Assembly (NCBI GenBank): GCA_054600435.1
Contig: BAAIJX010000012.1
Location: 1 to 64,000 of the forward strand
Origin: Neophaeotheca triangularis
Lineage: Eukaryota
Direction of reading: 5' to 3'
Length of the DNA stretch: 64,000 bases
Part shown: in pieces, positions 28,436 through 50,239 of the stretch
Layout of the letters: each line of letters opens with the position of its first letter
How positions within the stretch are numbered: position 1 is the stretch's first letter
The notes under the pieces: model-generated
The model's database searches: none
Seen by the model: only the letters and a program-made list of their open reading frames with translations
Told to the model about the DNA's origin: nothing
Position numbers and translations under genes: made by a program

Positions 28436-30880
28436 ATGGGGAGGAAGCCAAACTCGCTCGTGCTCGAGTTCTTCGAGCGTGGCGACAAATTGGAAGACCA
28501 TAGCAACCGCTACCAATTCACCTGCAAGAACTGCGGCGATTTTGTAAGACGGTTTCCTCAGCTGATTTGAGAGTCACTTGTAACTCTTACTGATACATCA
28601 AATAGTTCGCGAAAGGGCGCATCGACAGCTTACTCGGTCACGTTCAGAAGAAATGCCCCAACGTCACTCCGTGGGATCGCGACCGAGTCGCTTTCCATCA
28701 GCAAAATAACTCTCAGGCTTCCAGGAACGCTCAGATAAACCAAAGTGCCCCCGAGACCAACACCATGATGGCCTTCAACGGCTTCCAGAACAACCAGCCC
28801 GACCTCGTCCAGTACGAACTGCCGCTTCCCCCTTTCTACTCGCAACAGGATTCGCAAGGACCATTCTACTCCCAGACGGGCCAATCTGCGCTCGAAACCC
28901 TTGCAGAAGTCTCCCGCCAACATCTCGACTATTCTTCACAGAGGCCTCCTTACGGTACGAATGCGTATGGCCACGACCAAGACATGCTGGGGGCAGATCA
29001 AGGCGCAGAGCAGGCCCTCATCTCGGAACTCAACCAGCACGTCCATCAGGGCGAGCAATCACAGCAAGCGTTCGCAAATGCTGTGCTGGCATCGAGTGCT
29101 CTTACATCGTCTCCCCTTGTTCAAACTGCGTCAGCGGCAAATCATCATCTAGAGCACTCACAGGTGGACGATTCTAGTCAGCATACCCAAAACCTAGACC
29201 CTAATCTGGACAGCCAACAACATGAGCAGCCGCGGGTTAGCCCTCCAAAGCAGCAGCCAAGCCAGGCTCAGGGCAGCAATGTCTTCACCTGGCAACAGAG
29301 CGACACCGGTGGTAAACCTACTCAGAGTTTTGGTTCGCTGACTGTAAGCATGCCATCCAATGATCCCGATCCAGATCTGAGCCTCGCCCAGGACACAAGC
29401 AAGAGCAAGGCGCGCAGTCGTTTCAACGATAATCGCCGAAAGCAGGTGCAGTCGATTCGCAAGCAAGGAGCCTGCATTCGTTGTCGGATGCTCAAGAAGC
29501 CGGTAAGTGCCGTTGCCTACCCTGAAATTAGAGCTTGCACCTTTGCTAATCCACGCACAGTGCTCGGAGGGAACACCATGTCAGACCTGCAGCAACGTTG
29601 ATTCGGCGCGCCTCTGGAAAGGAAAGTGCCTCAGGACGAGATTGGCCGACGAGTTCACCCTGTACTCGACCTCGCTCTTCCACGCTCAAGCGCAACTCGA
29701 GGTACTCGCAGAAATCGAGAGCCTCCAAAACGATATCCTACCAGGTCAAGTTGAAGCTAAGATATTCCCTGCGGCAGACATCTCTATGTCTTTCCACATG
29801 CGACGATACGCAAGCTCAGGGCAGAATAGTGACTCGGAGCCTATTTTGGTAATACAAGACTCTGAGTTACACGAGGGAGGAACAGGCCACGAGAAAGTGG
29901 AACGCTACTTTAGCAAGGCCACAGAAGCTTGTATCGAATCGGAGCAGTCTCAATTCCTCAAGGCCACCCTCCAACAAGCGGTAGACTTGTCGCGCAAGAG
30001 CAAGGAAGCCGACGTGGGCCCAAAAGACAAGAACGCCACTCGTGCAAGCTACAACTTACAAGACAAGCTCCTAGACGACATTATAAGCCTATGCGTAGCC
30101 ACGAACTTCCTCACGCGCCCGCACGACCAACATCTCGAGCTCTTCTACCAAGGTCCCTCGATAGTTCAAAAAAGCCCAACCACAGGCGAACTCGAAGACA
30201 TCCACGCCGACAAAATCCCCATCGACCAAACCACCCTCAGCCACCGCCTAATCACCCGCCAGCTCCTCGCCGCGACCGAAACCCTCTGCAGCAAACTTGG
30301 CAAACTCGTCATGAACGAGCTCGAGCGACGTCTGCTGCAGCGCCAGCAAGCCTCAGCTTTCGCAACAATCATAGCCTCGACGCTCCTCCTCAGCTGCGTC
30401 GAGCGCATGTGCGGCCTCTACACCTCTTCGACCCCACCGGCCGCCGAAACCGACCCGGCAACTACCCCCTTCTCCACCTGGCCCCTAGACACCCCGCCCC
30501 AAGCGCTCATAGCCCAAGGCCCCCGCTTTAGCGATTTACTCCTTACTCTCCTACGCATGCGTGCCTTGCCGCCCCGCACCGTTATCGCGGCTGATGGCAC
30601 TTTGCGCGTCCGTCAGGACAACGAGATGCCGGTGCAGTTTGGCGGGCGCGCGACTAAAGTGCCAGAGGCCGAGGAGGTGGAGCTTTATGTGCAGTGGTTG
30701 GATCCTTTGGGGTTGAGTGCGAGGGAGTTGATGGCTGCGAGTGCTGGGACGGAGATTGGGGGCGGGGAGGGTGGAGGTGAGGTTGAGGAGGGTGGTGGGG
30801 TTGGTGGTGGCGGGGAGAGGTGGGATATGAGGTTTGTGGCTGATGTGCTGTTGCCACAGCGGCCGGCAGGGAAGGAGTAG
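28436..30880 (+). CDS. Zn(II)2Cys6 transcription factor with N-terminal BED-like zinc finger; exons 28436-28543, 28606-29502, 29561-30880
   Basis: MGRKPNSLVLEFF..YQFTCKNCGDF|FAKGRIDSLLGHVQKKC and ACIRCRMLKKP|CSEGTPCQTC. Introns 28544-28605 and 29503-29560 have GTAAG donors and branch sites, and the frames join. Confidence 0.87.
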
Positions 30881-35395: not shown

Positions 35396-35741
35396 GCTGT
35401 CGTACCGATTATACTCGTTTCAAGGAGGCATCCCGGCAATGACGTGTTTCTAGTACAGTCGTGGAGGTAGAGCTCGAGCTGGGGTGGTGAAGTCGGCGGA
35501 ATGACATCCGAGATGCTTGGACTCGATCACCTTGCAGCCCTTGGGAGCTTCTATATTTACATACTCTACCAAGAACAAACGCGTAGCCACCTGTTCAATC
35601 GCCAGTAACATAAATGATGGATATTCACAATCGCCGAGGGTGACATTTACTCATTCGATGCGGCGTCGGAAGAAAAGTGGACGCGAATCCGGATCCCGAT
35701 CAATTCCAGCTACAATTCAGACTTAATCACCGCAATAGAAG

Positions 35742-38312
35742 ATGAGCCAGAAGAAAGGATGGGGGTCCCTACTCACCGGAGCTGTGGCCGGCCTCGAGTC
35801 GCGATTGGACACTATTCTTGCCGAGGACAGTGAGGCTTCTGCACGAGCTCGGGCGGCAGAGCAAGCTCTCAAAGACGCCAAAGGCAAGCAAGCTGGTTCA
35901 GGCAGCCTAGCTCCGCCTCCGGGGGGCAACAGTGCCAGTGGTTCTGGGGATGCGTCTCGTTCGAGGGTTAACGACCGTCTGGCAGAGCGTCTAGCGAAAG
36001 CTACCCAGCAGAAGCCTACTAGCCAGACAGGGAGCAAAGTTCCCAGCCGCGTTGCTAGCCCAAGCGTAGAGGATGGGAAGAAGAGCGAGAGAGCAAGTGG
36101 TGAAGCGGCAAGACCTGTACCCGAGTCTGAGAGGGCGGAGGATGTCAAGCAGGATGCGGCCAAGTCGGATGAGCCTACCAGCCTGAATGGCGATGTCGAG
36201 AAGCCGGACTCAGCAGAGAAAGGTGATCTCACTACTTCAGGGCTACCCATAAATCCTGCCAAAGTTTCAATCGACACGCCACGAGCTTCCAGTGAGGTGC
36301 AGCAAGACGAAAGCTCTACGCGACCTTCCTCCGAGCAGCCGACAGGGACTTCGCAACCAGCAAAGGATGCTGCTGAACTTGAGACTGAGCTCCAGCGTTT
36401 GCAACAAGAGCACGCCGAGTCCGAGAAGCAACGCAAAGAAGAGATGAACTCCCATCTTGAGCGCATAGATGCGCTGCAGGCAAAGCTACAGTACTTGGCC
36501 AAGGACAGCGTCGCCGCTGCGAAGGAAGCAAACGCTTCAGCACCGAGCGGCACCCTTGAGCAGCAGGTCGCTGAGAAAGACGAGAGAATCGCATTGCTGA
36601 TACAAGAGGGCGAAAAGCTATCCAAGACCGAGATGAGGCATTTGCAGACAATCAAGAAACTGCGAGCAAAGACTACGGAAGAAGACAAAGCTACGGCGGG
36701 TATGAGAAAGAAGCTCGAACGTGCTGAGCGCGCCGAACAGGATCTCAAGCAAAAGTTGCGCAAAGCTGAAATGGCGGATAGACAGGCCAATGAGAAGCTC
36801 AAGCAGATTGCTAGTATTGAGAAGGTGGTGGGAGAGTTGCAGACAGATCGCGAGAATGCCTCGGAGCTGATCAGGAAACTCACTGCGCAATTGCGTGAGT
36901 CAGAGAGAAAAGCAGAACAGGCGCAGAAGGAGGTCAATAGTAGGGCCGCAGAAGCAGACAAGGGTAGGATTGCTGGGTTGGAGAATGAGCTTGAAGATGC
37001 GCAAATTGAGAGGAAGCTCGCGGAAGATAGGGCCGTGGCAGAAGCGAAGAGGGGGAAGGAGGAAACTGATCGGCAGCGTGAGAGGTCCGCCCTGGCAGAG
37101 TCCGAGCTAAAGAATGAGATTGCAGGTTTGGAGTCCAGGCTCGAGGCTATGCGAACAAGAGCTGAAGAGGCAAGCTCGGAGGGTGCTGGTGGTGAGGGCA
37201 GCGTGCATCTTCTTCGACAGGTGGAGATGGTGCAGAGTCAATATTCACAAGCCAAGGAGAACTGGGAGACCATTGAGGGCAGTTTGAATGCGAGGCTTGC
37301 GGCGCTGGAGAAGGAGAGAGATGAGGGGGCGAAGCGAGAGACGGAGGTAAGGCGAAAGGCTAGAGATGTTGGGGGAAGATGTCGGAAGGCTGAGGAGGAG
37401 GTTGAGAGTGTACGGGAAGATGTTAGACGTCTGGAGGCCGAACTTTCCGCAAAGTCTGATCAAGCAAGATCGATGCAGGAGCGACTTGGTCAGGCTGAGG
37501 CGACTGAAAGGGATGCCAAGGCGGACGTCGAACGCCAACGCAAGGTCTGGGAGACTGAATTGGCCCAGCGACTCGAAGAAGAAAAGGCAAAATGGCGCCG
37601 TCAAGCTCCTACACTTCGGACCGAGTCGCCAGCAATCTACAGCCGGAAAGCATCGACTCAAGATCCAGTTCACTTGCCCCCACGCTGGCAACACCGCTCT
37701 TCATCCACGCGCCTGAACCCCCCTCAAGACTCTTCTCCATCCGAGATCCGTCCCAACTCCTCTTACTCACGCCGGGGCTCGACATTGCCCACCCCGACGA
37801 ACCCCAACTTCCCATCAACGCCGGGTCTCAGTCGGCAAGAAAGTTGCCAATCGCTTTCCACGCATACACCCAACGAAGGGCCGCCCACACCTTCTGTTGA
37901 TGCCGAAGCCGACAATTTCGGCACCTCGACACCGCCTTTGCCGCTCGACGAGTTGGTTAGCACGACCACCTCTGGCGCCGGACCGAGCGTGCAGCTTGTC
38001 GAGCGTTTGTCCACCGCAGTGAGGCGTTTGGAGAGCGAGAAGGCTGCTACGCGGGACGAATTGAGTCGGCTTTCGTCTCAGCGAGACCAAGCGAGGGATG
38101 AAGTTGTGGCGCTGATGCGGGAAGTTGAGGCAAGTAGGGAGACGGGAAAGAAGGTCGAGGGATTGGAAAAGGAATTGGCTGAGACGAAGCGCCGGTATGA
38201 GGCTAGTTTGGAGATGCTGGGAGAGAGAGAGGAACAGGTTGAGGAGCTGAAGGGGGACATTGGGGAGATGAAGAGGTTGTATCGGGAGTTGGTTGAGAAA
38301 GTTGGGAAGTGA
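35742..38312 (+). CDS. SGM1: TMF1/Sgm1-like golgin (coiled coil)
   Basis: GWGSLL..LESRLDTIL N-terminus, IALLIQEGEKLSKTE..TIKKLR, SVQLVERLSTAVRRLESE..RYEASLEMLGE..VEELKGD..MKRLYR. Confidence 0.88.
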   Translation: MSQKKGWGSLLTGAVAGLESRLDTILAEDSEASARARAAEQALKDAKGKQAGSGSLAPPPGGNSASGSGDASRSRVNDRLAERLAKATQQKPTSQTGSKVPSRVASPSVEDGKKSERASGEAARPVPESERAEDVKQDAAKSDEPTSLNGDVEKPDSAEKGDLTTSGLPINPAKVSIDTPRASSEVQQDESSTRPSSEQPTGTSQPAKDAAELETELQRLQQEHAESEKQRKEEMNSHLERIDALQAKLQYLAKDSVAAAKEANASAPSGTLEQQVAEKDERIALLIQEGEKLSKTEMRHLQTIKKLRAKTTEEDKATAGMRKKLERAERAEQDLKQKLRKAEMADRQANEKLKQIASIEKVVGELQTDRENASELIRKLTAQLRESERKAEQAQKEVNSRAAEADKGRIAGLENELEDAQIERKLAEDRAVAEAKRGKEETDRQRERSALAESELKNEIAGLESRLEAMRTRAEEASSEGAGGEGSVHLLRQVEMVQSQYSQAKENWETIEGSLNARLAALEKERDEGAKRETEVRRKARDVGGRCRKAEEEVESVREDVRRLEAELSAKSDQARSMQERLGQAEATERDAKADVERQRKVWETELAQRLEEEKAKWRRQAPTLRTESPAIYSRKASTQDPVHLPPRWQHRSSSTRLNPPQDSSPSEIRPNSSYSRRGSTLPTPTNPNFPSTPGLSRQESCQSLSTHTPNEGPPTPSVDAEADNFGTSTPPLPLDELVSTTTSGAGPSVQLVERLSTAVRRLESEKAATRDELSRLSSQRDQARDEVVALMREVEASRETGKKVEGLEKELAETKRRYEASLEMLGEREEQVEELKGDIGEMKRLYRELVEKVGK

Positions 38313-40300
38313 TACTGCTTTCTAGTCTAGCAGTACTTGCGAGGATTTAATCATAGATTGCCCGCTACGCTTTGTGAATGTTTCCATCAATCTGACAAAT
38401 GTTCGTTAACTGTCGCTTTTTCCATTCGTCTGGCGCTCTTGCTTTACTATTTTCCTAACCTTTCCCCTCTGGATACTTACCTGTTTACCGCTGCATTCCT
38501 CCCCGCGCCAAAACTCACAAGAAGACAAGCACAAGATGATGCCGTCCCCGGCAGAAAGACTATACCCGTTTGGCCACCTGTTTGCACTAGAAAGTCGAGA
38601 CCAATCTTGACCTGCTTATTGGACACCAAGTCAATGTCTGGAGGCGCCGAGGATACCTTGGTCGATTGAACCAGACAATCGCGAGAGCCGATACTCCAGA
38701 CTTCTCAACAGGTTCAGTGTTGCAGGCGCGTGCTGGTCCTGATCCCTGCGATGTATACTGACTCCAGCTGTTCGCCCTTCGTGGGCCGAGGGGTTATAAA
38801 ACTGCGGTCCTCCTTTGTTATAATTTCTCTTTCCTTTTAATTTCCCTTCTTTTCGAATGTGTGCAACAAATCTCTCGTGGAGACGCAAGCAAACAAGTCC
38901 TTCAGCTAAACTTTTTGGCAAGTTGCAAGGCACGCCATGTATGATTCAGTGAGCAGAAAAAACCATGGGCATTGGGTGGAGGCATTGGGAGCCCCCCTTA
39001 TCCCGACCAAGAGTATCAAAACCAGCGGCCTAGTCTTATCATTTTGACCAGTCGCACGCAGTAGCCTTCCCTTGGTCTTCGAATGCAAGATTGGACCTTG
39101 CCACGGATGAGGTTGAAAAGCAGTGGAGGCTAGGTCTTTCCTGTACATCTTGTACGTGGCAGATGCAGATCCAGAGGATAGGCAGCTTCTGTGCCGAGGG
39201 AGAAGGACTTCCTCAGTAGGTCACTCTCATCAGGCTAACGACTGGTAGATGCGGGCTCCTTTGCTGTCTTCTTGCTACATCATAAAATGATCCCGAAGCG
39301 CTCAGGACATGCCCCTGGATGGGGGACATACATCATTACGACGGCTACTTGCTTCAGAATTTCGTCAGGTGCTGGACCGCGAACGTCGAACGTGGTCTAG
39401 GGACGGTTTTTAGTGAGGAACGTGGAATGGTTTCCCTAATGCTCGAGGGATTGAATGTCGTTGGAGTGGATCTTCCTCGCTTTCTCGACCGTCTGCTGAC
39501 AGTACCTTCAGGGGTGCTGGAGGCATCTGAGCAGTGTCTGTGAAGGCGTTGTGGGGAGGCCTTCGTTCAAGCACCATACCTGTGCTCTCAAGGAGAAGAG
39601 CTTACCTGCTCAGTCTAGTAATACCAGTGCAAGGACTCTCCGCATCTTACCACAAACCTGGTAAGTTTTTCGAATGTTGGCCCGGCTCAGTACCACGCTC
39701 TAGACGGCTTCGAAGCGATGATAGGCCCTTGTCTTAATGAAAAACGAGCACGTCCAGGAGCACGAGAGTGGCCATAATCACAGACCGTACTTACTCGTAG
39801 CACCGTAAACGAAGCGTTCCAAAGCCGGGCCCAGTGGGAAGCCTATCGAGATCTGCCAAAGCTCGTTTCAACGGACACACAGCCTTCGCTTACCTTGGTG
39901 AGTATTCTTTGAAGCCACTTTGCGGCGTATAGCAAGAGTGACTACAGATCCCGGCTCAACTGGTGATTGGACGGCGCGAGTGTAGTGAAGTGATTGATCC
40001 AGCTGTTAAAATATTAGTCTCTCAAGACACTCCCCTTCCAGGCCAATTACCATGAATACTCTCCCTCTCTAGCAGTAGGCCATGATTGCGAAATTCACGC
40101 TGTCGTCTCTCCCTTGAGCGGCGCAGAGGTCTTCCTCATTTGTGGAAGAAAATATAGGCCCAGGTCCAGTAGAGATCCAATCTTCATGGCAAAAATTTCA
40201 AATTTGGAATGCTGTAGAGGTGATGGTAGTTGAAAAGGCTATAAGTACCACCCACAACACGACCAATGCCCGGGCATACTCCTCGAGTGTGTTAAGGTGT

Positions 40301-40314
40301 AAAAACAGCAAAAA
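40301..40314 (-). terminator. RNA polymerase III oligo(T) terminators (two T5 runs) downstream of tRNA-Ser
   Basis: AAAAA at 40310-40314 and 40301-40305 on + read as TTTTT on minus, starting ~14 nt after the discriminator base. Confidence 0.75.
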
Positions 40315-40327
40315 GATACGCCATTGG

Positions 40328-40461
40328 CGACGTGGGCAGGATTCGAACCTACGCCCCCGAAGGGAATTGATTTCTAGTCACTGTGGGAAGTCAGCATTGG
40401 CTCAAATAGGCAGGAATAGCGGGGAAGACCGACATCGCAGTGACCACTTTGCTACCACGCC
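40328..40461 (-). tRNA. tRNA-Ser(AGA) with a 53-nt GT-AG intron (40381-40433) in the anticodon stem between positions 28 and 29
   Basis: The spliced sequence GGCGTGG TA GCA AAGTGGTCAC TGC G AT|TGA CTAGAAA TCAAT TCCCTTCGGGGGC GTAGG TTCGAAT CCTGC CCACGTC G folds into a full cloverleaf with a long variable arm and G73. A box TAGCAAAGTGG, B box GGTTCGAATCC. Confidence 0.93.
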
Positions 40462-40501
40462 CAATTCCTTGACGGTTGTTGAGTTGGCTGGGGCCAAATG
40501 G

Positions 40502-40508
40502 TATATAA
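40502..40508 (-). promoter_or_regulatory. TATA-like element ~40 nt upstream of tRNA-Ser
   Basis: TTATATA on minus; position is consistent with upstream TATA elements of fungal tRNA genes. Confidence 0.4.
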
Positions 40509-41838
40509 CACTTTTGCAAAAGACTGGAGCGGCGACGCCAGGCTGGAAATGGATTGTGACGAGAAAGCGGAGACGTGTCTGTTCTGGACGAGCTATTTGA
40601 CCCTTACAGAGTCCCGCTGGCTGTAAAACCTAGCCTCGCTTTTTGTTTCGGCCTTCGGATATTCGGATCAGGGGCAGCCGACGACGGCTTGGACGGCTTG
40701 CCCGGAAATCCGAGTTCCATGCCCCAACGGGGTTCTTGGCAGACAAAGTGTTGTGCCAGGTATCGTCTGATCGATGCTTCCTCTAAATTGCAAAGGCTAG
40801 GATATCGAAAAACTCACTTGTTTTTAACTTGGCGTTCACCAAGACTCGAACTATTGGCTCAAATCTTTACGACGGCGAGCTCGTAGCTAGAGATTCCAAG
40901 GAGACCTGCGACGCCCGCTAAATCACATCCGACTGGCTTCGTTGATGGATTTGACCAAGTTGGTGGTTTCCCCTGAAGTGTTGATTTAGACTCGAACTGA
41001 AGCTTCGATGTGTCAAATTGCAAGGTCGAGGACAAAGTCTCGAGGGTGGTTAACGATGCCCGCTCGAGGACCTCCTACCAACACCGGTAGATATATGGAC
41101 AGATCGACCAAGTTGATGGTCTTCCCTATAATATTGATGATTGTTCGATCTCAGGGGTAACGGAAGTTAGTCATATCACGAGGCTGTTATCCCATGCATT
41201 GGAACAGCGTTGATGCTATTAGTCGTCATTCGTTTGGAAGATGGAGGGACTGTTCGCCATGGATTCCTCTCGACCTTGACGAGCGCCCTCCACGAGACGA
41301 CTCGGGCAATGTTCTGACTCGTCTTTGCGTTGTAGCATTCTGAAGTAATTTTCAACGAAAAGTTCTGGCAGTGTGTAGGGGGTATCGTTACAGATGATGG
41401 ATCGAGAATGCATGGGTAGGGGCACAACGCCTCGTAAAACACCAAGTCTCTTCAGAACCACGCAATTTGTGGGCACTTTCAGTGAGACTTGAAAGATGGG
41501 AAGATAATACTGGCGCAGCTCTTGGAGTGAGACGATGCTGGGATGGCAGAATGTCTTCGGGTTGGAAGTAGATTGGGCCTGTCCAGCAAAGGGAACGAGT
41601 AGTCATTTAGCTCTCATCGGGAGTAGCGTCGACTTTATACTAGGGCAGTGGTATTGAGGTTTTCCAGACTGCTCTTGTCGTATGACGTTGAGGTATTCAA
41701 ATTTTCGCATTGAGAGGTATCAGACTAATTCACGACACACATCGATCAGTCAAAGATGGAGAAAAGAGCGATTCGAGCAACTGTTCCACAGAGGGTACAG
41801 CAAAATCTATCAATAATCAGTAGAAACGCTCGAGACAC

Positions 41839-43027
41839 TCAAACCTCCGGGTAAATGTCACTAATAAATCGTCAGCGATGAACATTCCTACATTGGACAT
41901 CTTGAGAATACTCACGTCCTCCTCAACAACGGCATCTCCTTTCGTATTGTTCGTATCCTCTCGAAATCAATCTCGGCGTACCCAATTGCAGGCTCATCCT
42001 CAGCCTCGCCACTCAACTCCGTCAAAATCTCACCCCACGGCGAAATAACAACACTATGGCCATAGCTGGTTCGCTTCTCATTATGCTTACCCACCTGCGC
42101 CGCCGCAATGACATACGCCTGGCTTTCTATCGCACGAGCCTGCAAAAGCGGCATCCAATGAACCTTGCCAGTCTCGGGAGCGAAAGCGCTTGGGTAGAGG
42201 ATGCAATCCGCCTTTTGACGCGCCAGACTGAGAGCAATTTCGGGAAACCTCAAGTCGTAGCAGATTGCGCTCCCAAGTCTGCCTACGGGACTCTCGAAAG
42301 GTGGTAAAATTTCGTCTCCAGGTTGTACCGTAGTCGACTCCCTCATCACGGGGCCGCCTTTGATCTCGAGATCAAATAGATGGAGCTTCTTGTAGCGTTG
42401 ACTAATCTCACCCCTGGCGTCGATCCATAGAAGACTGTTGATCATTCGGTTGGATTCGCTCTCACTGGGCTCATGGACACCAACAGAGATCGGAAGCTTA
42501 TGTTTGCGGGCCTCCTCTCTCAGGCCCTGAAGGAACAGAGATTTGTCGGCTGGCTGGCATAACGAGAGGCTCTCGTCTGGGTTGGATCCGACGTAATCGC
42601 TAGCCTCCGGTAGAAACAGTGCCTATCTGAATGCATTGAGCGATTGTCGTCAAACTCTTCAAGAAATCCTACTACTGACCTTGGCGCCTTTCTCCGCCGC
42701 GCGTTGAATCACTGTCCTGCATTGTGATAGATTATGGGACATTGATGCAGTCGAACATATTTGACCGATCGCCTGTTGAAACGATTAGTCGTGCAATTGA
42801 AGAAATTCACGGCTCTGCTCAACCCTTGAACTCACCGCGAGAGCCATCTTTGGAGCAGGGTTCGTGCTCTGAGGTAAGCTTTGCGACGCTTGAGCGTCTG
42901 TTTCTGGGATCGGCACTGTTTTGGTCATGCTTGTGGAATGTAGAAGAGAAGTGGTAGAGAAGGACAGTTTCGTACTTTTTGTCGTCGCTGGTGGCTTTGG
43001 TAGTTTCGTGACCCAACGAGGCATCAT
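41839..43027 (-). CDS. NIT2: Nitrilase-family deaminated-glutathione amidase (yeast Nit2/human NIT1-like); exons 43027 (or 42847)-42836, 42772-42680, 42622-41916, 41860-41839
   Basis: AIGQICST, LFLPEASDY, YKKLHLFD, AICYDLRFPE (Glu-Lys-Cys triad), ARAIESQ, SYGHS, RRT|DIYPEV. Three canonical introns: 42773-42835, 42623-42679, 41861-41915. Confidence 0.9.
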
Positions 43028-43564: not shown

Positions 43565-43750
43565 GACCGAGCATCCATCACAAGTCCTTGCGCTTCCATG
43601 GCCTTTTCAACCTTGCTAACTTGATAGCTCAGGAAACACAACACTTCCTTGTCAATTTTTCGCTGCTTCCGTGGACGGTCACTCTTCAATCTAGCATGAC
43701 TTGAAAAGGTATGCCTAACACCCTCTTCCATTCCCCTCACCTGCCCTTTT

Positions 43751-43836
43751 GTGATGAAACTTTGACAAGAATTGGCATTCCTCGATCCAAAAATACAATG
43801 TGGATTTTGTCTTTTATAAGTTTCAGCCTTGTCTGA
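43751..43836 (+). ncRNA. snR41: Box C/D snoRNA snR41 (18S Gm1126, yeast numbering)
   Basis: C box GTGATGA; 15-nt guide TAAGTTTCAGCCTTG antisense to 18S CAAGGCUGAAACUUA before CTGA 43833-43836; D+5 rule gives G. Confidence 0.88.
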
Positions 43837-43954
43837 TTCGACATCCCGTCACATACATCTCGCCGGATCATCAACATGAAGAGCCTTTCACTAATAGACT
43901 CTTCAGGTACATTAAGTCCCTTTCAAAGCCTGCCGGCACTCGTAGCCATGTTAC

Positions 43955-44088
43955 ATGATGAGACCTCCGAACGCGTCGGGCGGACAGAGCGCATAGCACA
44001 CCCCTCATCGGAGCATCCATCAAAGCGGGACGTACAAATCCTGCGGGTGTTTTGGTGAGGGAGTGGCTGTTGAGAAAGCGTTGTCTGA
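43955..44088 (+). ncRNA. snR70: Box C/D snoRNA snR70 (18S Cm1639, yeast numbering)
   Basis: C box ATGATGA; D' guide GCGtCGGGCGG-A-CAGA antisense to 18S CCGCCCGUCGC (1 mismatch); extra GTACAAA complement; D box 44085-44088. The snR41-snR70-snR51 order matches the yeast cluster. Confidence 0.8.
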
Positions 44089-44217
44089 TCTAGTCGGCGG
44101 AGTCCAGCTGGCGAGTGTGCATACATGCTGCTGAATAAGTGCTGACATGATCGATAGGTACTGCCATCACTATCCCCTTCCCACTGCCATAGGCCCCCGG
44201 CAACGGCCATCTCTGCA

Positions 44218-44378
44218 ATGATGAACAACTATTCACACTGTTTGAACCAACTTTCGTTGTAACGAGCGGAAGCGGTTATGAACGTACAAAATACACTGAA
44301 AATTCTGATTTAATGAGGTATGTTGGATCCAGACTTGAGACCGTTCCCAAAACTTGTGCTGACCATGTGATAGCCTGA
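44218..44378 (+). ncRNA. snR51: Box C/D snoRNA snR51 (25S Um2729 and 18S Am100, yeast numbering), interrupted by intron 44318-44373
   Basis: C box ATGATGA; D' guide TATTCACACTG-T-TTGA (25S CAGUGUGAAUA); D guide CTGATTTAATGAG|C-CTGA (18S GCUCAUUAAAUCAG), completed only after splicing. Confidence 0.88.
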
Positions 44379-44535
44379 TCGCAGAGAAGAACAACACGCA
44401 GCTGTTATTACCAAACGTTGCCGAGTGTGTAGCTAATGCGAAGACACACTACAGGTCATTGCCATGCCACGACAGCATTGGATTCGATAGAATGAGTGAG
44501 TTTTATCGTCTTGCACTTCTCCCTTTCCCCTTCAA

Positions 44536-44612
44536 ATGATGTCAACCTTTTTATCTTAGCGGATTCCACTGCAATTACATTGAAGACCCTTCACGAAAAT
44601 CAAAATCTCTGA
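44536..44612 (+). ncRNA. Box C/D snoRNA with two 25S guides (family unassigned)
   Basis: C box ATGATGT; guide CTTAGCGGATTCC (25S GGAAUCCGCUAAG); C' TTGAAGA; guide GAAAATCAAAATC-T-CTGA (25S GAUUUUGAUUUUC). Confidence 0.78.
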
Positions 44613-44764
44613 CGCCGAGGCATCTTGACTGCGATTCATCGCTCGTTTGTCATGACGGACAATGCTAACGACTCCGTCTCAGGCCTGCATAACTGCGCGC
44701 TTACCCCAGTAAGACACCTGCATCCGGTACGTTCATTCCTACTTGGAGCTTTCCCCACCACTGC

Positions 44765-44855
44765 ACGATGAACAAACAAACAATTTTGCTGTGTTCTTTC
44801 CGAGTGTGCTTCGGTACTCGTTGAAGATACAAACTATTTCACCTTGGAGAACTGA
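44765..44855 (+). ncRNA. Box C/D snoRNA, U24/snR24-like (25S Cm1437) with a D' guide to 5.8S rRNA
   Basis: C box ACGATGA; D guide TTCACCTTGGAGA-A-CTGA (25S UCUCCAAGGUGAA); D' guide TTTGCTGTGTTCTT-T-CCGA (5.8S AAGAACGCAGCGAA, with G-U pairs); hairpin between D' and C' (TTGAAGA). Confidence 0.82.
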
Positions 44856-45926
44856 TAGACCCCCTCTCGCTGCACTATACCGATGTATGCAAGACGTTGG
44901 TTGGCTTCGTACTGACTTTGATTCAAAGGGCGCCTTTTGGCTTGTCGTTATCTTTTCATCAGTTAACCTTTGCTGTCTCCTTTGACAGCGATGGGCTGGA
45001 GAAGAGGTGTCGGAATGACTTCGTTTGCTTCGACAGCGGATCGCGAAGCTTCGAGTCTCATGAGACTTGTCTGCCGTACATTGGAGGCATTTGCAGCTAA
45101 TGAGGCATCGCAACAGAACTGCATCAATGGTGTACATCGCGAGTGCCACGCCCGAAAGCAATGACATTCCTTCCTTTTCACACGCTAGGCATCTAGACAT
45201 TATTCGTTCACACGCCATCTAGCTCAATGCCCTCCCGGCAGCCAATCATCGAAATCATCCCAAAAAAGCATTTCAAAAAAGAACCCATCACCGTGAACCA
45301 ATTCAGCCTTGTAAAAAAGTCGTACCAGCGTTAAACTACACGTATTCTCCCGAAAGACAAAAACGGCCGAGTGCGACACCCCAACGGAGCCCTTATCATC
45401 GCAAGAGCCAAGCACCGGGCCCAATGTAGCATGTAGGATATTAAGAAACCCTCAATGTCGCGCGCCGCAATGTACATACGTACTCGGACAGCATTCCAGT
45501 AGTCCTGGCACTCCTTGCTGGCCCATCCGTCCGTCCGTCCGTCCTGTTTCAATTGCCCGTGTATGTACATATTTCCCTGACCATGCAGGGCAAAGCCTTT
45601 GCACACATATACCGCCTCTGCTTGCCCCGTGGCTATCCATCCATCCATCCATCCCTCCATCCGCAAGTCTGTCTTCCCTTCCGATTGAAAACTCGCCCAT
45701 TCCGACTTGCGCCATGTCCCGTTCATCAGCCCTCATGCATGCATGCATGCGTGGCAAGCTCGTTCGCAAGCAGAAAACAAACGTCTACGCCTGTACGCCC
45801 CTGTCGTTGTTGGAATAAGACACTTGCCTTACAAGACCGAAAAATACCAGTGTGCCCCTTCCACCATTATCCTGCCCTGCGGCACCCAAGGCCATCTACC
45901 CAATGTCTGACGTCGGTCGCGTGCAC

Positions 45927-48632: not shown

Positions 48633-50239
48633 ATGGTAAGATCCCTGCCACAACACTCGCCAAAGCTCATCGTGTCCAAACTCACTCATCCCAGAACTCA
48701 CGTACACTGCGCCGTCTGGCCGCCGACCACGGAGCTCTTCACAATCAGCCTCTTCCACCAAACTACCTTTTCCCGCCCACTGGCGCCACGGCCGATTCTC
48801 TCACCGAGGTCGACATACTCCTCGCAGGACCTACACACACCCCTTTCGAAGCAGGCGTTTTCAAACTTCACCTCAACATCCCGCCAGAATATCCCCAAGC
48901 GCCTCCGACCGCCAACTTCCGCACCCCCATCTTCCACCCAAATGTCGAGCAAGAGACTGGAGGCGTGTGTGTGGAGACGTTGAAGCGGGACTGGGACGCG
49001 AAACTCACATTGCGCGACGTGCTGGTCACTATCTGTTGCCTGTTGATTCAGCCTAACCCGGACAGCGCGCTGAATGCTGAGGCTGGGGCATTGATCAGAG
49101 ATGATTATGAGGCTTTTTCGAGGCGGGCGAAGCTGATGACCAGTATCCATGCTGTGATACCGAGGACTTTGAAGGAGGCGGTACAGGAAGCCCAGGAGCG
49201 AGGGCAGGAAGTAAGCGAGGAGCCGGGAGGGAAGAAGATGCAAGGGGATACGCTGGAAGGTCCTGCGGGGCAACCAGCGGGAGGGGAGCCGGTAAGAAGG
49301 AGAAGGACGGTGGCTCGTGTCAGAGGTACGGCGGCCGCGAGAAGGGCAGATGCTTCACCTTCTGGTGCAGCTGTCAGACGCAGAGCCCAGCCAGGCCCGA
49401 GCAGACCTTTTGCCGTTCCAGCTGCCGGCGATGATATTTTCGGACTGTCCCGTAGAGACCGCGAGCAAATGCACACTCCCTCGGACACGGAGGAAGACAG
49501 TATCTTCGGACCCAGCCAAGAGAACGACGCAACTAGATCTCCCGTCAAAGCCAAGACTCCAACCAAACTCGCTACACCAAAACGCCCCCAAGGTGCACCC
49601 GTACCACTGGGAGAACTAACAATGGAAGACGCCCCGCCCACCGCCGAAGACCACAGCTGGGACACGTCCGAAGACATGGAACCCGAATACCCACCCAGCC
49701 CACGCAAAAGCGCCTCCAAATCCCCCCGAAAGCGCATCGAGCAAGCAGAACGCAGCACCAACACGACCACCACAACAACGACGCCAGACGCCCTCCACAG
49801 AGCCCCGAACATGACCCCCCCAAACAACCACGCCACCCCTCTAGCCACCTCCTCCCCCTTCGCACCCACAGCCGCCGCCACCGATCTCGCAAACCCCACC
49901 CCCTCGCCCCGCAAAACCCGAAACCCCTTCTTCGCCCCCGCCAAAACAACCCCGCTCGCACCACCTAAACTCGCTTTCCCCCTCAAGCAACAACAGGCCG
50001 CCAACACCACCCGAGCGGACACAAGCACCACCAATCACAAGACCAAAGGCAAGGGCAAAGCAAAAGCCATTTCCAAGCCGCCTCCTTCCTCCCCTTCTTC
50101 GGCGGAAAAGCGCGCGAGAGCTGCGAGCGAGGCGCGTGTTCGGAAAATGTGGGAGCTTTGCGGGGGCGATGTTGGGGAGTGGAACCGCGGCAGTTTTGGC
50201 AGCGAGCTGGGATGGGAGGTCAAGGCTTCTAGGTGGTGA
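48633..50239 (+). CDS. Ubiquitin-conjugating enzyme E2 (UBE2S-like) with long disordered C-terminal tail; exons 48633-48635, 48695-50239
   Basis: ATG|GTAAGA...CAG|AAC gives MNSRTLRRL; GPTHTPFEAGVF, YPQAPP, IFHPNV..GVCVETLKRDW (catalytic Cys), PNPDSALNAEAG. Confidence 0.88.

Follow-up and report, generated by a model that had tools for sequence, protein, structure and literature searches.

A tRNA-Ser(AGA) gene of Neophaeotheca triangularis interrupted in its anticodon stem by a spliceosomal-type intron sequence

Results and discussion

Genomic setting of the locus

The DNA analysed here, referred to as the window, comprises the first 64,000 nucleotides of contig BAAIJX010000012.1 of Neophaeotheca triangularis (assembly GCA_054600435.1). 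The locus of interest is a tRNA gene on the minus strand, lying in a gap of 3.6 kb that separates a TMF-like gene (35739-38309, plus strand) from a carbon-nitrogen hydrolase gene (41915-42622, minus strand). No ORF bearing a Pfam domain is present in the interval 38312-41912, and a 160-aa ORF that runs antisense to the tRNA (40118-40597, plus strand) shows no family match.

A cluster of snoRNA genes is found on the plus strand at 43747-44858. It contains strong matches to Afu_455 (43747-43838, 75.4 bits) and Afu_294 (44761-44858, 65.9 bits), two families that were both defined in Aspergillus fumigatus and that mark the window as fungal, and between them a weak snR67-like match (44214-44310) whose 23 bits fall under the gathering threshold. 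Amid the cluster is an intron-like segment at 44318-44373 (GTATGT...GCTGAC...TAG), which suggests that these snoRNAs belong to a spliced non-coding host gene.

Structure of the interrupted tRNA-Ser(AGA) gene

The tRNA gene extends from nucleotide 1 to the discriminator G73 over positions 40328..40461 of the minus strand, and was called by the Rfam tRNA model RF00005 on the genomic DNA and by ARAGORN on the spliced form. Exon 1 (40434..40461, 28 nt) supplies the 5' strand of the acceptor stem, the D arm, nucleotide 26 and the anticodon stem's first two bases. It is followed by an insert of 53 nt (40381..40433), a spliceosomal-type intron by its sequence, placed between tRNA nucleotides 28 and 29, and then by exon 2 (40328..40380, 53 nt), which holds the rest of the anticodon stem, the loop with the anticodon AGA (40375-40373), the variable arm, the T arm, the 3' strand of the acceptor stem and G73. 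With the insert deleted, the two exons form an 81-nt molecule that ARAGORN accepts as tRNA-Ser(aga), drawn with an acceptor stem of 7 bp (one of them G-U), a D stem of 3 bp and an anticodon stem of 5 bp, together with a long variable arm, a standard T arm and a discriminator G. A long variable arm together with discriminator G73 is what identifies a serine tRNA. By sequence the locus is a nuclear, class II tRNA-Ser gene of the Pol III type 2 class.

The preliminary description of this DNA, made from the letters alone, had claimed that deleting the 53 nt restores a serine cloverleaf with a 5-bp anticodon stem and that the junction is fixed exactly on GT...AG, and both statements agree with our results. 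Exon 1 ends in T and the insert in G, while the insert begins with G and exon 2 with T; because the bases flanking each junction differ, the junction is unable to slide in either direction. A tRNA-derived SINE was considered and ruled out, as the 3' strand of the acceptor stem and the discriminator are complete and a terminator follows at most 13 nt later.

The locus is poorly visible to automated searches. ARAGORN in its default mode found no tRNA in the unspliced genomic DNA, and the tRNA locus was absent from the matches of a default Rfam gathering run with fast filters. Only with permissive filters was RF00005 obtained over 40328-40461 (minus strand), where it spans model positions 1-71 of 71 with 34.3 bits (gathering threshold 29) and accommodates 77 nt where the anticodon arm should be. 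When ARAGORN was run in intron mode, its sole call across the whole window was an aberrant 95-nt 'tRNA-Lys(ctt)' at 40325-40461 (minus strand), with a 42-nt intron placed at 37/38 and a variable region of excessive size, a kind of call that would act as an annotation trap able to hide split genes such as this one. As described for tRNAscan-SE 2.0, that program looks for non-canonical introns in archaea only (PMC8450103). The expectation that tRNA finders miss such a gene, and the proposal that a tRNA finder and a covariance model be compared on the spliced and unspliced forms, were both part of the preliminary description; ARAGORN recognised the correct tRNA in the spliced form only, and the covariance model reached its 34.3 bits on the unspliced one.

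The elements expected of a Pol III gene were all located by regular expression or by direct reading, and the earlier statement that the A box, B box, upstream TATA and T5 terminator are intact is thereby borne out. The A box, TAGCAAAGTGG (40444..40454, minus strand; precursor positions 8-18), was matched by regular expression; the A box consensus is TRGCNNAGTGG. The B box, GGTTCGAATCC (40339..40349, minus strand; precursor positions 113-123), was found in the same way. Both boxes lie outside the insert and are 94 nt apart, a spacing at the upper end of the natural range. Two T5 runs that resemble Pol III terminators were read from the minus strand at 40314-40310 and 40305-40301, the first of them 13 nt past G73, and a TATATA (40502..40507) that may serve as an upstream element is situated 41-46 nt before tRNA nucleotide 1. 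The longest T run inside the insert is 3.

The sequence CCA is encoded directly after the discriminator G73, at 40325-40327 (minus strand). A genome-encoded CCA at this place is unusual in eukaryotic tRNA genes. It could be the trace of a mature tRNA that was copied back into the genome, or it could be chance (1/64). We set it aside as a hallmark of retro-copying, given that chance level and the proper terminator that follows.

The insert has the signals of an mRNA-type intron

The insert begins with a 5' splice site GTCGGT (40428..40433, minus strand) that has G at +5 and T at +6. A branch-site motif, GCTGAC, is located at 40390..40395 with its branch A at 40391, and the insert ends in a 3' splice site CAG (40381..40383) whose AG is the first one past the branch and also the one that restores the tRNA. 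These signals had been named in the preliminary description, which placed the YAG 9 nt after the branch site; GTCGGT, GCTGAC and YAG all stand, but the branch A is followed by 10 nt through the AG, not 9. Compared with the classical donor consensus, the donor deviates at intron bases +3 and +4 and at exon base -1.

In order to place these signals among those of the surrounding genes, we assembled eight comparison introns from the window. Enumerating introns from pairs of ORFs was noisy, so Pfam domains split between adjacent ORFs were used instead, which gave four Pfam-supported introns, and four ORF-joined introns completed the set. The Pfam-supported introns interrupt a protein kinase (17583-17532, 52 nt, donor GTCAGT, acceptor TAG), a CHORD domain (23761-23700, 62 nt, GTGGGT, CAG), a SIR2 domain (32138-32085, 54 nt, GTGAGC, CAG) and the CN_hydrolase domain (42679-42623, 57 nt, GTCAGT, TAG); the ORF-joined introns are at 29503-29560, 2975-2919, 45537-45588 and 54121-54045. 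The eight range from 52 to 77 nt in length, carry the branch motifs GCTAAC, GCTAAT, ACTGAC or CCTGAC, and have these 8-15 nt from the end in seven cases. Three have donors that start with GTC (GTCAGT twice, GTCCGT once). With its 53 nt, GTCGGT, GCTGAC at 10 nt and CAG, the insert falls within this distribution, which is in keeping with the earlier claim that its size and signals match the mRNA introns of the window.

The comparison set also bears on the absence of a T4 run. That the insert has no T4 was correctly noted in the preliminary description, and this absence is a necessary condition for Pol III read-through. It is not a sign of selection for such read-through, because T runs are limited to 3 or fewer in all eight comparison introns too.

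How often such signals occur by chance depends strongly on whether the ends are fixed. With the ends fixed, we required GT at the start, followed by G at +5 and T at +6, a CTRAC motif whose A lies 5-30 nt before the end, and a terminal YAG. Among all 127,896 53-mers on both strands of the window only one has this full set, and that one is the insert itself; the chance of finding it at the boundaries dictated by the cloverleaf is thus about 1e-5. Over lengths of 40-120 the same set was found in 32 of 10,368,000 window segments. When the ends were left free, the signals were not enriched in the window (32 donors versus 39-59 in ten Markov shuffles), nor in its ORF-supported subset (12 versus 11-19 in shuffles), so they are loose when nothing else fixes the ends. 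A 101-nt segment at 48965-49065 (plus strand) illustrates this looseness, for it has the full donor, branch and acceptor set and lies inside the continuous domain of a ubiquitin-conjugating enzyme, and was rejected as an intron. At the tRNA locus it is the cloverleaf that fixes the ends, and the signals found there are not a chance occurrence. The insert is shaped like a U2-type GT-AG spliceosomal intron of the short fungal kind, as judged from the DNA alone, and very probably represents a genuine spliceosomal-type intron that has invaded a tRNA gene.

Possible routes of removal

The insert is inside the anticodon stem, at 28/29, and the position 37/38 is unused. A canonical 37/38 tRNA intron was rejected on these grounds, since forcing 37/38 yields only the aberrant 'Lys(ctt)'. 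The eukaryotic endonuclease is described as acting by a ruler mechanism that measures from the folded tRNA body, with canonical introns at 37/38 (PMC4090602). We also scanned 16 registers for a bulge-helix-bulge (BHB) motif, defined as two 3-nt bulges that hold the splice sites, a 4-bp helix between them and flanking helices, and no such motif fits in any of the 16. The canonical register gives 1/4 central pairs and 1/3 in each flanking helix; the best central helix in the scan has 3/4 pairs, at which point the outer helix has just 0-1/3.

In the predicted fold of the precursor, the acceptor, variable and T arms are retained and bases 16-87 form one long imperfect hairpin. Here the donor GTCGGT would pair over 6 bp with the branch motif GCTGAC (40375-40446 region), and a segment of the D loop and D stem would pair over 9 bp across the 3' splice site, leaving that site internal to a helix. 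The stability of the fold is unremarkable (z = -1.67; 9 of 200 shuffles were as stable). Such a structure, as modelled, may hide the splice sites from the spliceosome or may bring them together.

Since neither the ruler mechanism nor a BHB motif can define the splice sites, and since the anticodon stem cannot form before removal, the spliceosome is the only known machinery able to mature this transcript. Any removal of the insert would have to be the work of the spliceosome.

Comparison with known intron systems

The nearest parallel is the mRNA-type intron of U6 in fission yeast and other fungi (Tani and Ohshima 1989, 1991; Canzler et al. 2016; cited in PMC5855946). As outlined there, the U6 case likewise consists of a short GT-AG intron with a branch site in a small and highly structured Pol III gene with internal promoter elements, and gain by reverse splicing is likewise supposed. 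This agrees with the preliminary description, which stated that spliceosomal introns are known in a fungal Pol III gene. The present host differs from U6 in being a tRNA, outside the spliceosome's active site, in belonging to a redundant family so that its function is not guaranteed, and in having an intron known from sequence. Spliceosomal introns have also been described in U1, U2 and U5 of Rhodotorula hasegawae and in ascomycete rRNA genes (Takahashi 1993, 1996; Bhattacharya 2000; cited in PMC5855946). These are similarly of spliceosomal type and in fungal non-coding RNA genes, including ones not transcribed by Pol II, but they concern another RNA class and polymerase, and no tRNA is among the examples cited there. 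Spliceosomal introns in non-coding RNA genes are therefore already known; what is particular here is the host, a tRNA, and the sequence makes its maturation by the spliceosome plausible.

Other interrupted tRNA genes offer more distant comparisons. Canonical 37/38 introns are also intervening sequences in the anticodon arm of nuclear tRNAs (PMC4090602), whereas the present insert is at 28/29 within the stem, prevents the stem that the ruler mechanism requires from forming before removal, and has GT...AG ends with a branch motif. The BHB introns of archaea, Cyanidioschyzon merolae and nucleomorphs occupy unusual positions, including the anticodon stem (PMC4090602); unlike them, the insert allows no bulge-helix-bulge to be drawn, and at 53 nt it is longer than the insertions of 3-24 nt reported for the Guillardia nucleomorph in the same source. 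With the insertion-bearing tRNA pseudogenes discussed there (PMC4090602) it shares the fact that a single copy is interrupted, and it differs from them in that the insert has a complete set of splice signals at the boundaries that restore the tRNA and that everything else is intact.

Full-text searching of the literature turned up no paper describing a tRNA gene with a spliceosomal intron, in line with the earlier remark that no standard tRNA example is known.

Origin of the insert

Spliceosomal introns have been recorded in the Pol III gene U6, in U1, U2 and U5 snRNA genes and in rRNA genes, and those in non-coding RNA genes are attributed to the reverse splicing of introns into RNAs present in abundance or near the active site (PMC5855946). 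Spliceosomes that have completed splicing are reported to keep a catalytic activity that could drive intron transposition (PMC11146597). By analogy with these cases, reverse splicing is most likely the most economical origin of the insert: an excised intron would have been reverse-spliced into a tRNA, and reverse transcription and recombination would then have carried it into the gene, or some other form of intron transposition may have taken place.

The 64-kb window contains no second copy of the insert, and this lack of a source intron in the window counts against such an origin. The best match to the insert within the window, 12 nt at 40864-40853, was discarded as being at chance level, since 22 of 30 shuffles scored at least as high. 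Neither terminal repeats nor a target duplication are seen on reading the sequence at the insert. An introner-like or otherwise multicopy mobile intron would be expected to have several near-identical copies across the genome; within these 64 kb the insert is the one copy.

Is the interrupted gene productive?

Two readings of the locus deserve most weight, and they differ in whether the intron is spliced. The favoured one, to which we give about an even chance, is that this is a young and unproductive copy of tRNA-Ser(AGA). A short U2-type GT-AG intron would have invaded a Pol III-type tRNA-Ser(AGA) gene between nucleotides 28 and 29, on the 5' side of the anticodon stem; the interruption would be recent and selectively near-neutral, affecting one copy of a redundant family, and the interrupted copy would be unspliced or inefficiently spliced and too young for decay to have set in. 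The redundancy of tRNA families makes the loss of one copy near-neutral. This reading is favoured because of that redundancy and because an insertion that occurs just once, in a single member of a large set of synonymous eukaryotic tRNA genes, is, in the account of PMC4090602, generally regarded as marking a pseudogene. It is also favoured by the deviation of the donor at -1, +3 and +4 and by the pairing of the splice sites in the predicted fold.

Several observations argue against an unproductive copy. No damage is seen in any of the 81 exon bases, in either internal box, in the terminator or in the splice signals, and the tRNA bases 38-73 of exon 2 are identical to a contig of another organism. 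This 199-nt contig, from a sequencing run, is identical over 40327-40371, that is tRNA nucleotides 38-73 plus one base; upstream its divergence begins precisely at 37/38, downstream it carries a T5 run of its own, and it shares only the first C of the CCA. In this run, which was guessed to be of RNA, a fraction of 0.04 of the words occurred, and its sequence is unlike ours on both sides of 40327-40371. The contig is probably the Ser tRNA gene of another organism with a canonical 37/38 intron, and its identity shows only that the half of exon 2 covered by 40327-40371 is not degenerate. We further looked for starts of exon 2 not preceded by T, and none of 11 such loci in metagenome contigs had a tRNA, a count made without a positive control that says nothing on absence; among prokaryote genome contigs the same pattern gave 0 of 5 loci with a tRNA, again without a positive control.

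The competing reading is that the gene works, and we hold this to be possible, at somewhat below an even chance. By its sequence, Pol III would transcribe the gene by way of its A and B boxes, stopping at the T5 run, and the spliceosome would excise a 53-nt lariat. It would do so, by analogy with fission-yeast U6, by recognising GUCGGU, the GCUGAC branch and CAG on an uncapped transcript, a step about which we are equally tentative. No more and no less assured are the last steps, in which the exons would be joined, the ends processed, CCA added and the tRNA charged with serine. All 81 exon bases fit a class II serine tRNA with an intact promoter and terminator, the splice signals equal those of real introns in the window, and the first AG past the branch restores the tRNA. 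The insert is also free of T runs longer than 3, as Pol III read-through needs, although the same absence in all eight real introns makes this uninformative. Precedent comes from U6 as a Pol III transcript that fungi can splice, and from the spliceosomal introns of U1, U2, U5 and rRNA genes (PMC5855946), although many intron-bearing U6 genes are described in that source as still lacking experimental validation. A dead copy, moreover, would stay flawless only briefly and a live one for any length of time. Weighing on the other side are the near-neutral loss of one copy in a redundant family, the predicted pairing of the donor with the branch motif and of the acceptor within a 9-bp helix, and the lack, in the literature searched, of any published tRNA with a spliceosomal intron.

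Three further explanations account for the locus less well. A tRNA-like sequence might form part of a minus-strand read-through or other non-coding Pol II transcript with an ordinary intron, the tRNA being released after splicing; the locus is indeed on the same strand as the CN_hydrolase gene (41915-42622) and about 1.45 kb downstream of it, and the nearby snoRNA cluster points to the presence of non-coding host genes in this part of the window. We judge this improbable, as the locus has A and B boxes, a TATA upstream and a T5 terminator of its own, and as no supporting ORF or Pfam match lies around it. Still less probable, indeed very unlikely, is a non-canonical tRNA intron cut by the tRNA splicing endonuclease and sealed by ligase, as in archaea, Cyanidioschyzon merolae and nucleomorphs. 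The endonucleases of some eukaryotic lineages do cut at non-canonical positions, including ones in the anticodon stem-loop (PMC4090602), but here none of the 16 registers gives a 4-bp central helix with flanks (1/4, 1/3 and 1/3 in the canonical one), the 3' site is predicted to fold into a helix rather than a bulge, the position is 28/29 and not 37/38, and the full spliceosomal signal set would be left as an unexplained coincidence of about 1e-5. Just as hard to credit is a chance resemblance or an insert produced by faulty assembly. The free-ended signal search, with its lack of enrichment over shuffles, leans towards chance; the search with cloverleaf-fixed ends, which returned the insert alone, contradicts it, and an assembly artefact would not produce exact GT...AG ends together with a branch motif.

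Conclusions

The tRNA-Ser(AGA) gene described here is interrupted within its anticodon stem by a sequence that has the size and signals of a short spliceosomal intron. If the favoured reading of a young, unproductive copy is correct, the locus would still be a rare and clean trace left by the transposition of a spliceosomal intron to a target other than an mRNA, and would bear directly on reverse splicing as a long-debated way in which introns are gained (PMC5855946, PMC11146597). The alternative suggested by the sequence, a nuclear pre-tRNA-Ser(AGA) that matures through the spliceosome by way of a lariat formed at the GT, branch and AG within the anticodon stem, is one we regard as conceivable though on balance doubtful, and its consequences would be wider. 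If the gene is spliced, tRNAs would join mRNA/lncRNA, snRNA and rRNA as a fourth kind of RNA that hosts spliceosomal introns, and a new way to mature a tRNA would exist. It would follow that the spliceosome can act on a Pol III transcript that has no cap, is tightly folded and does not belong among its own components, and that counts of fungal tRNA genes omit a class that standard finders overlook or mis-call. The maturation of tRNA and the splicing of pre-mRNA, which are held to be fully separate intron systems, would then overlap.
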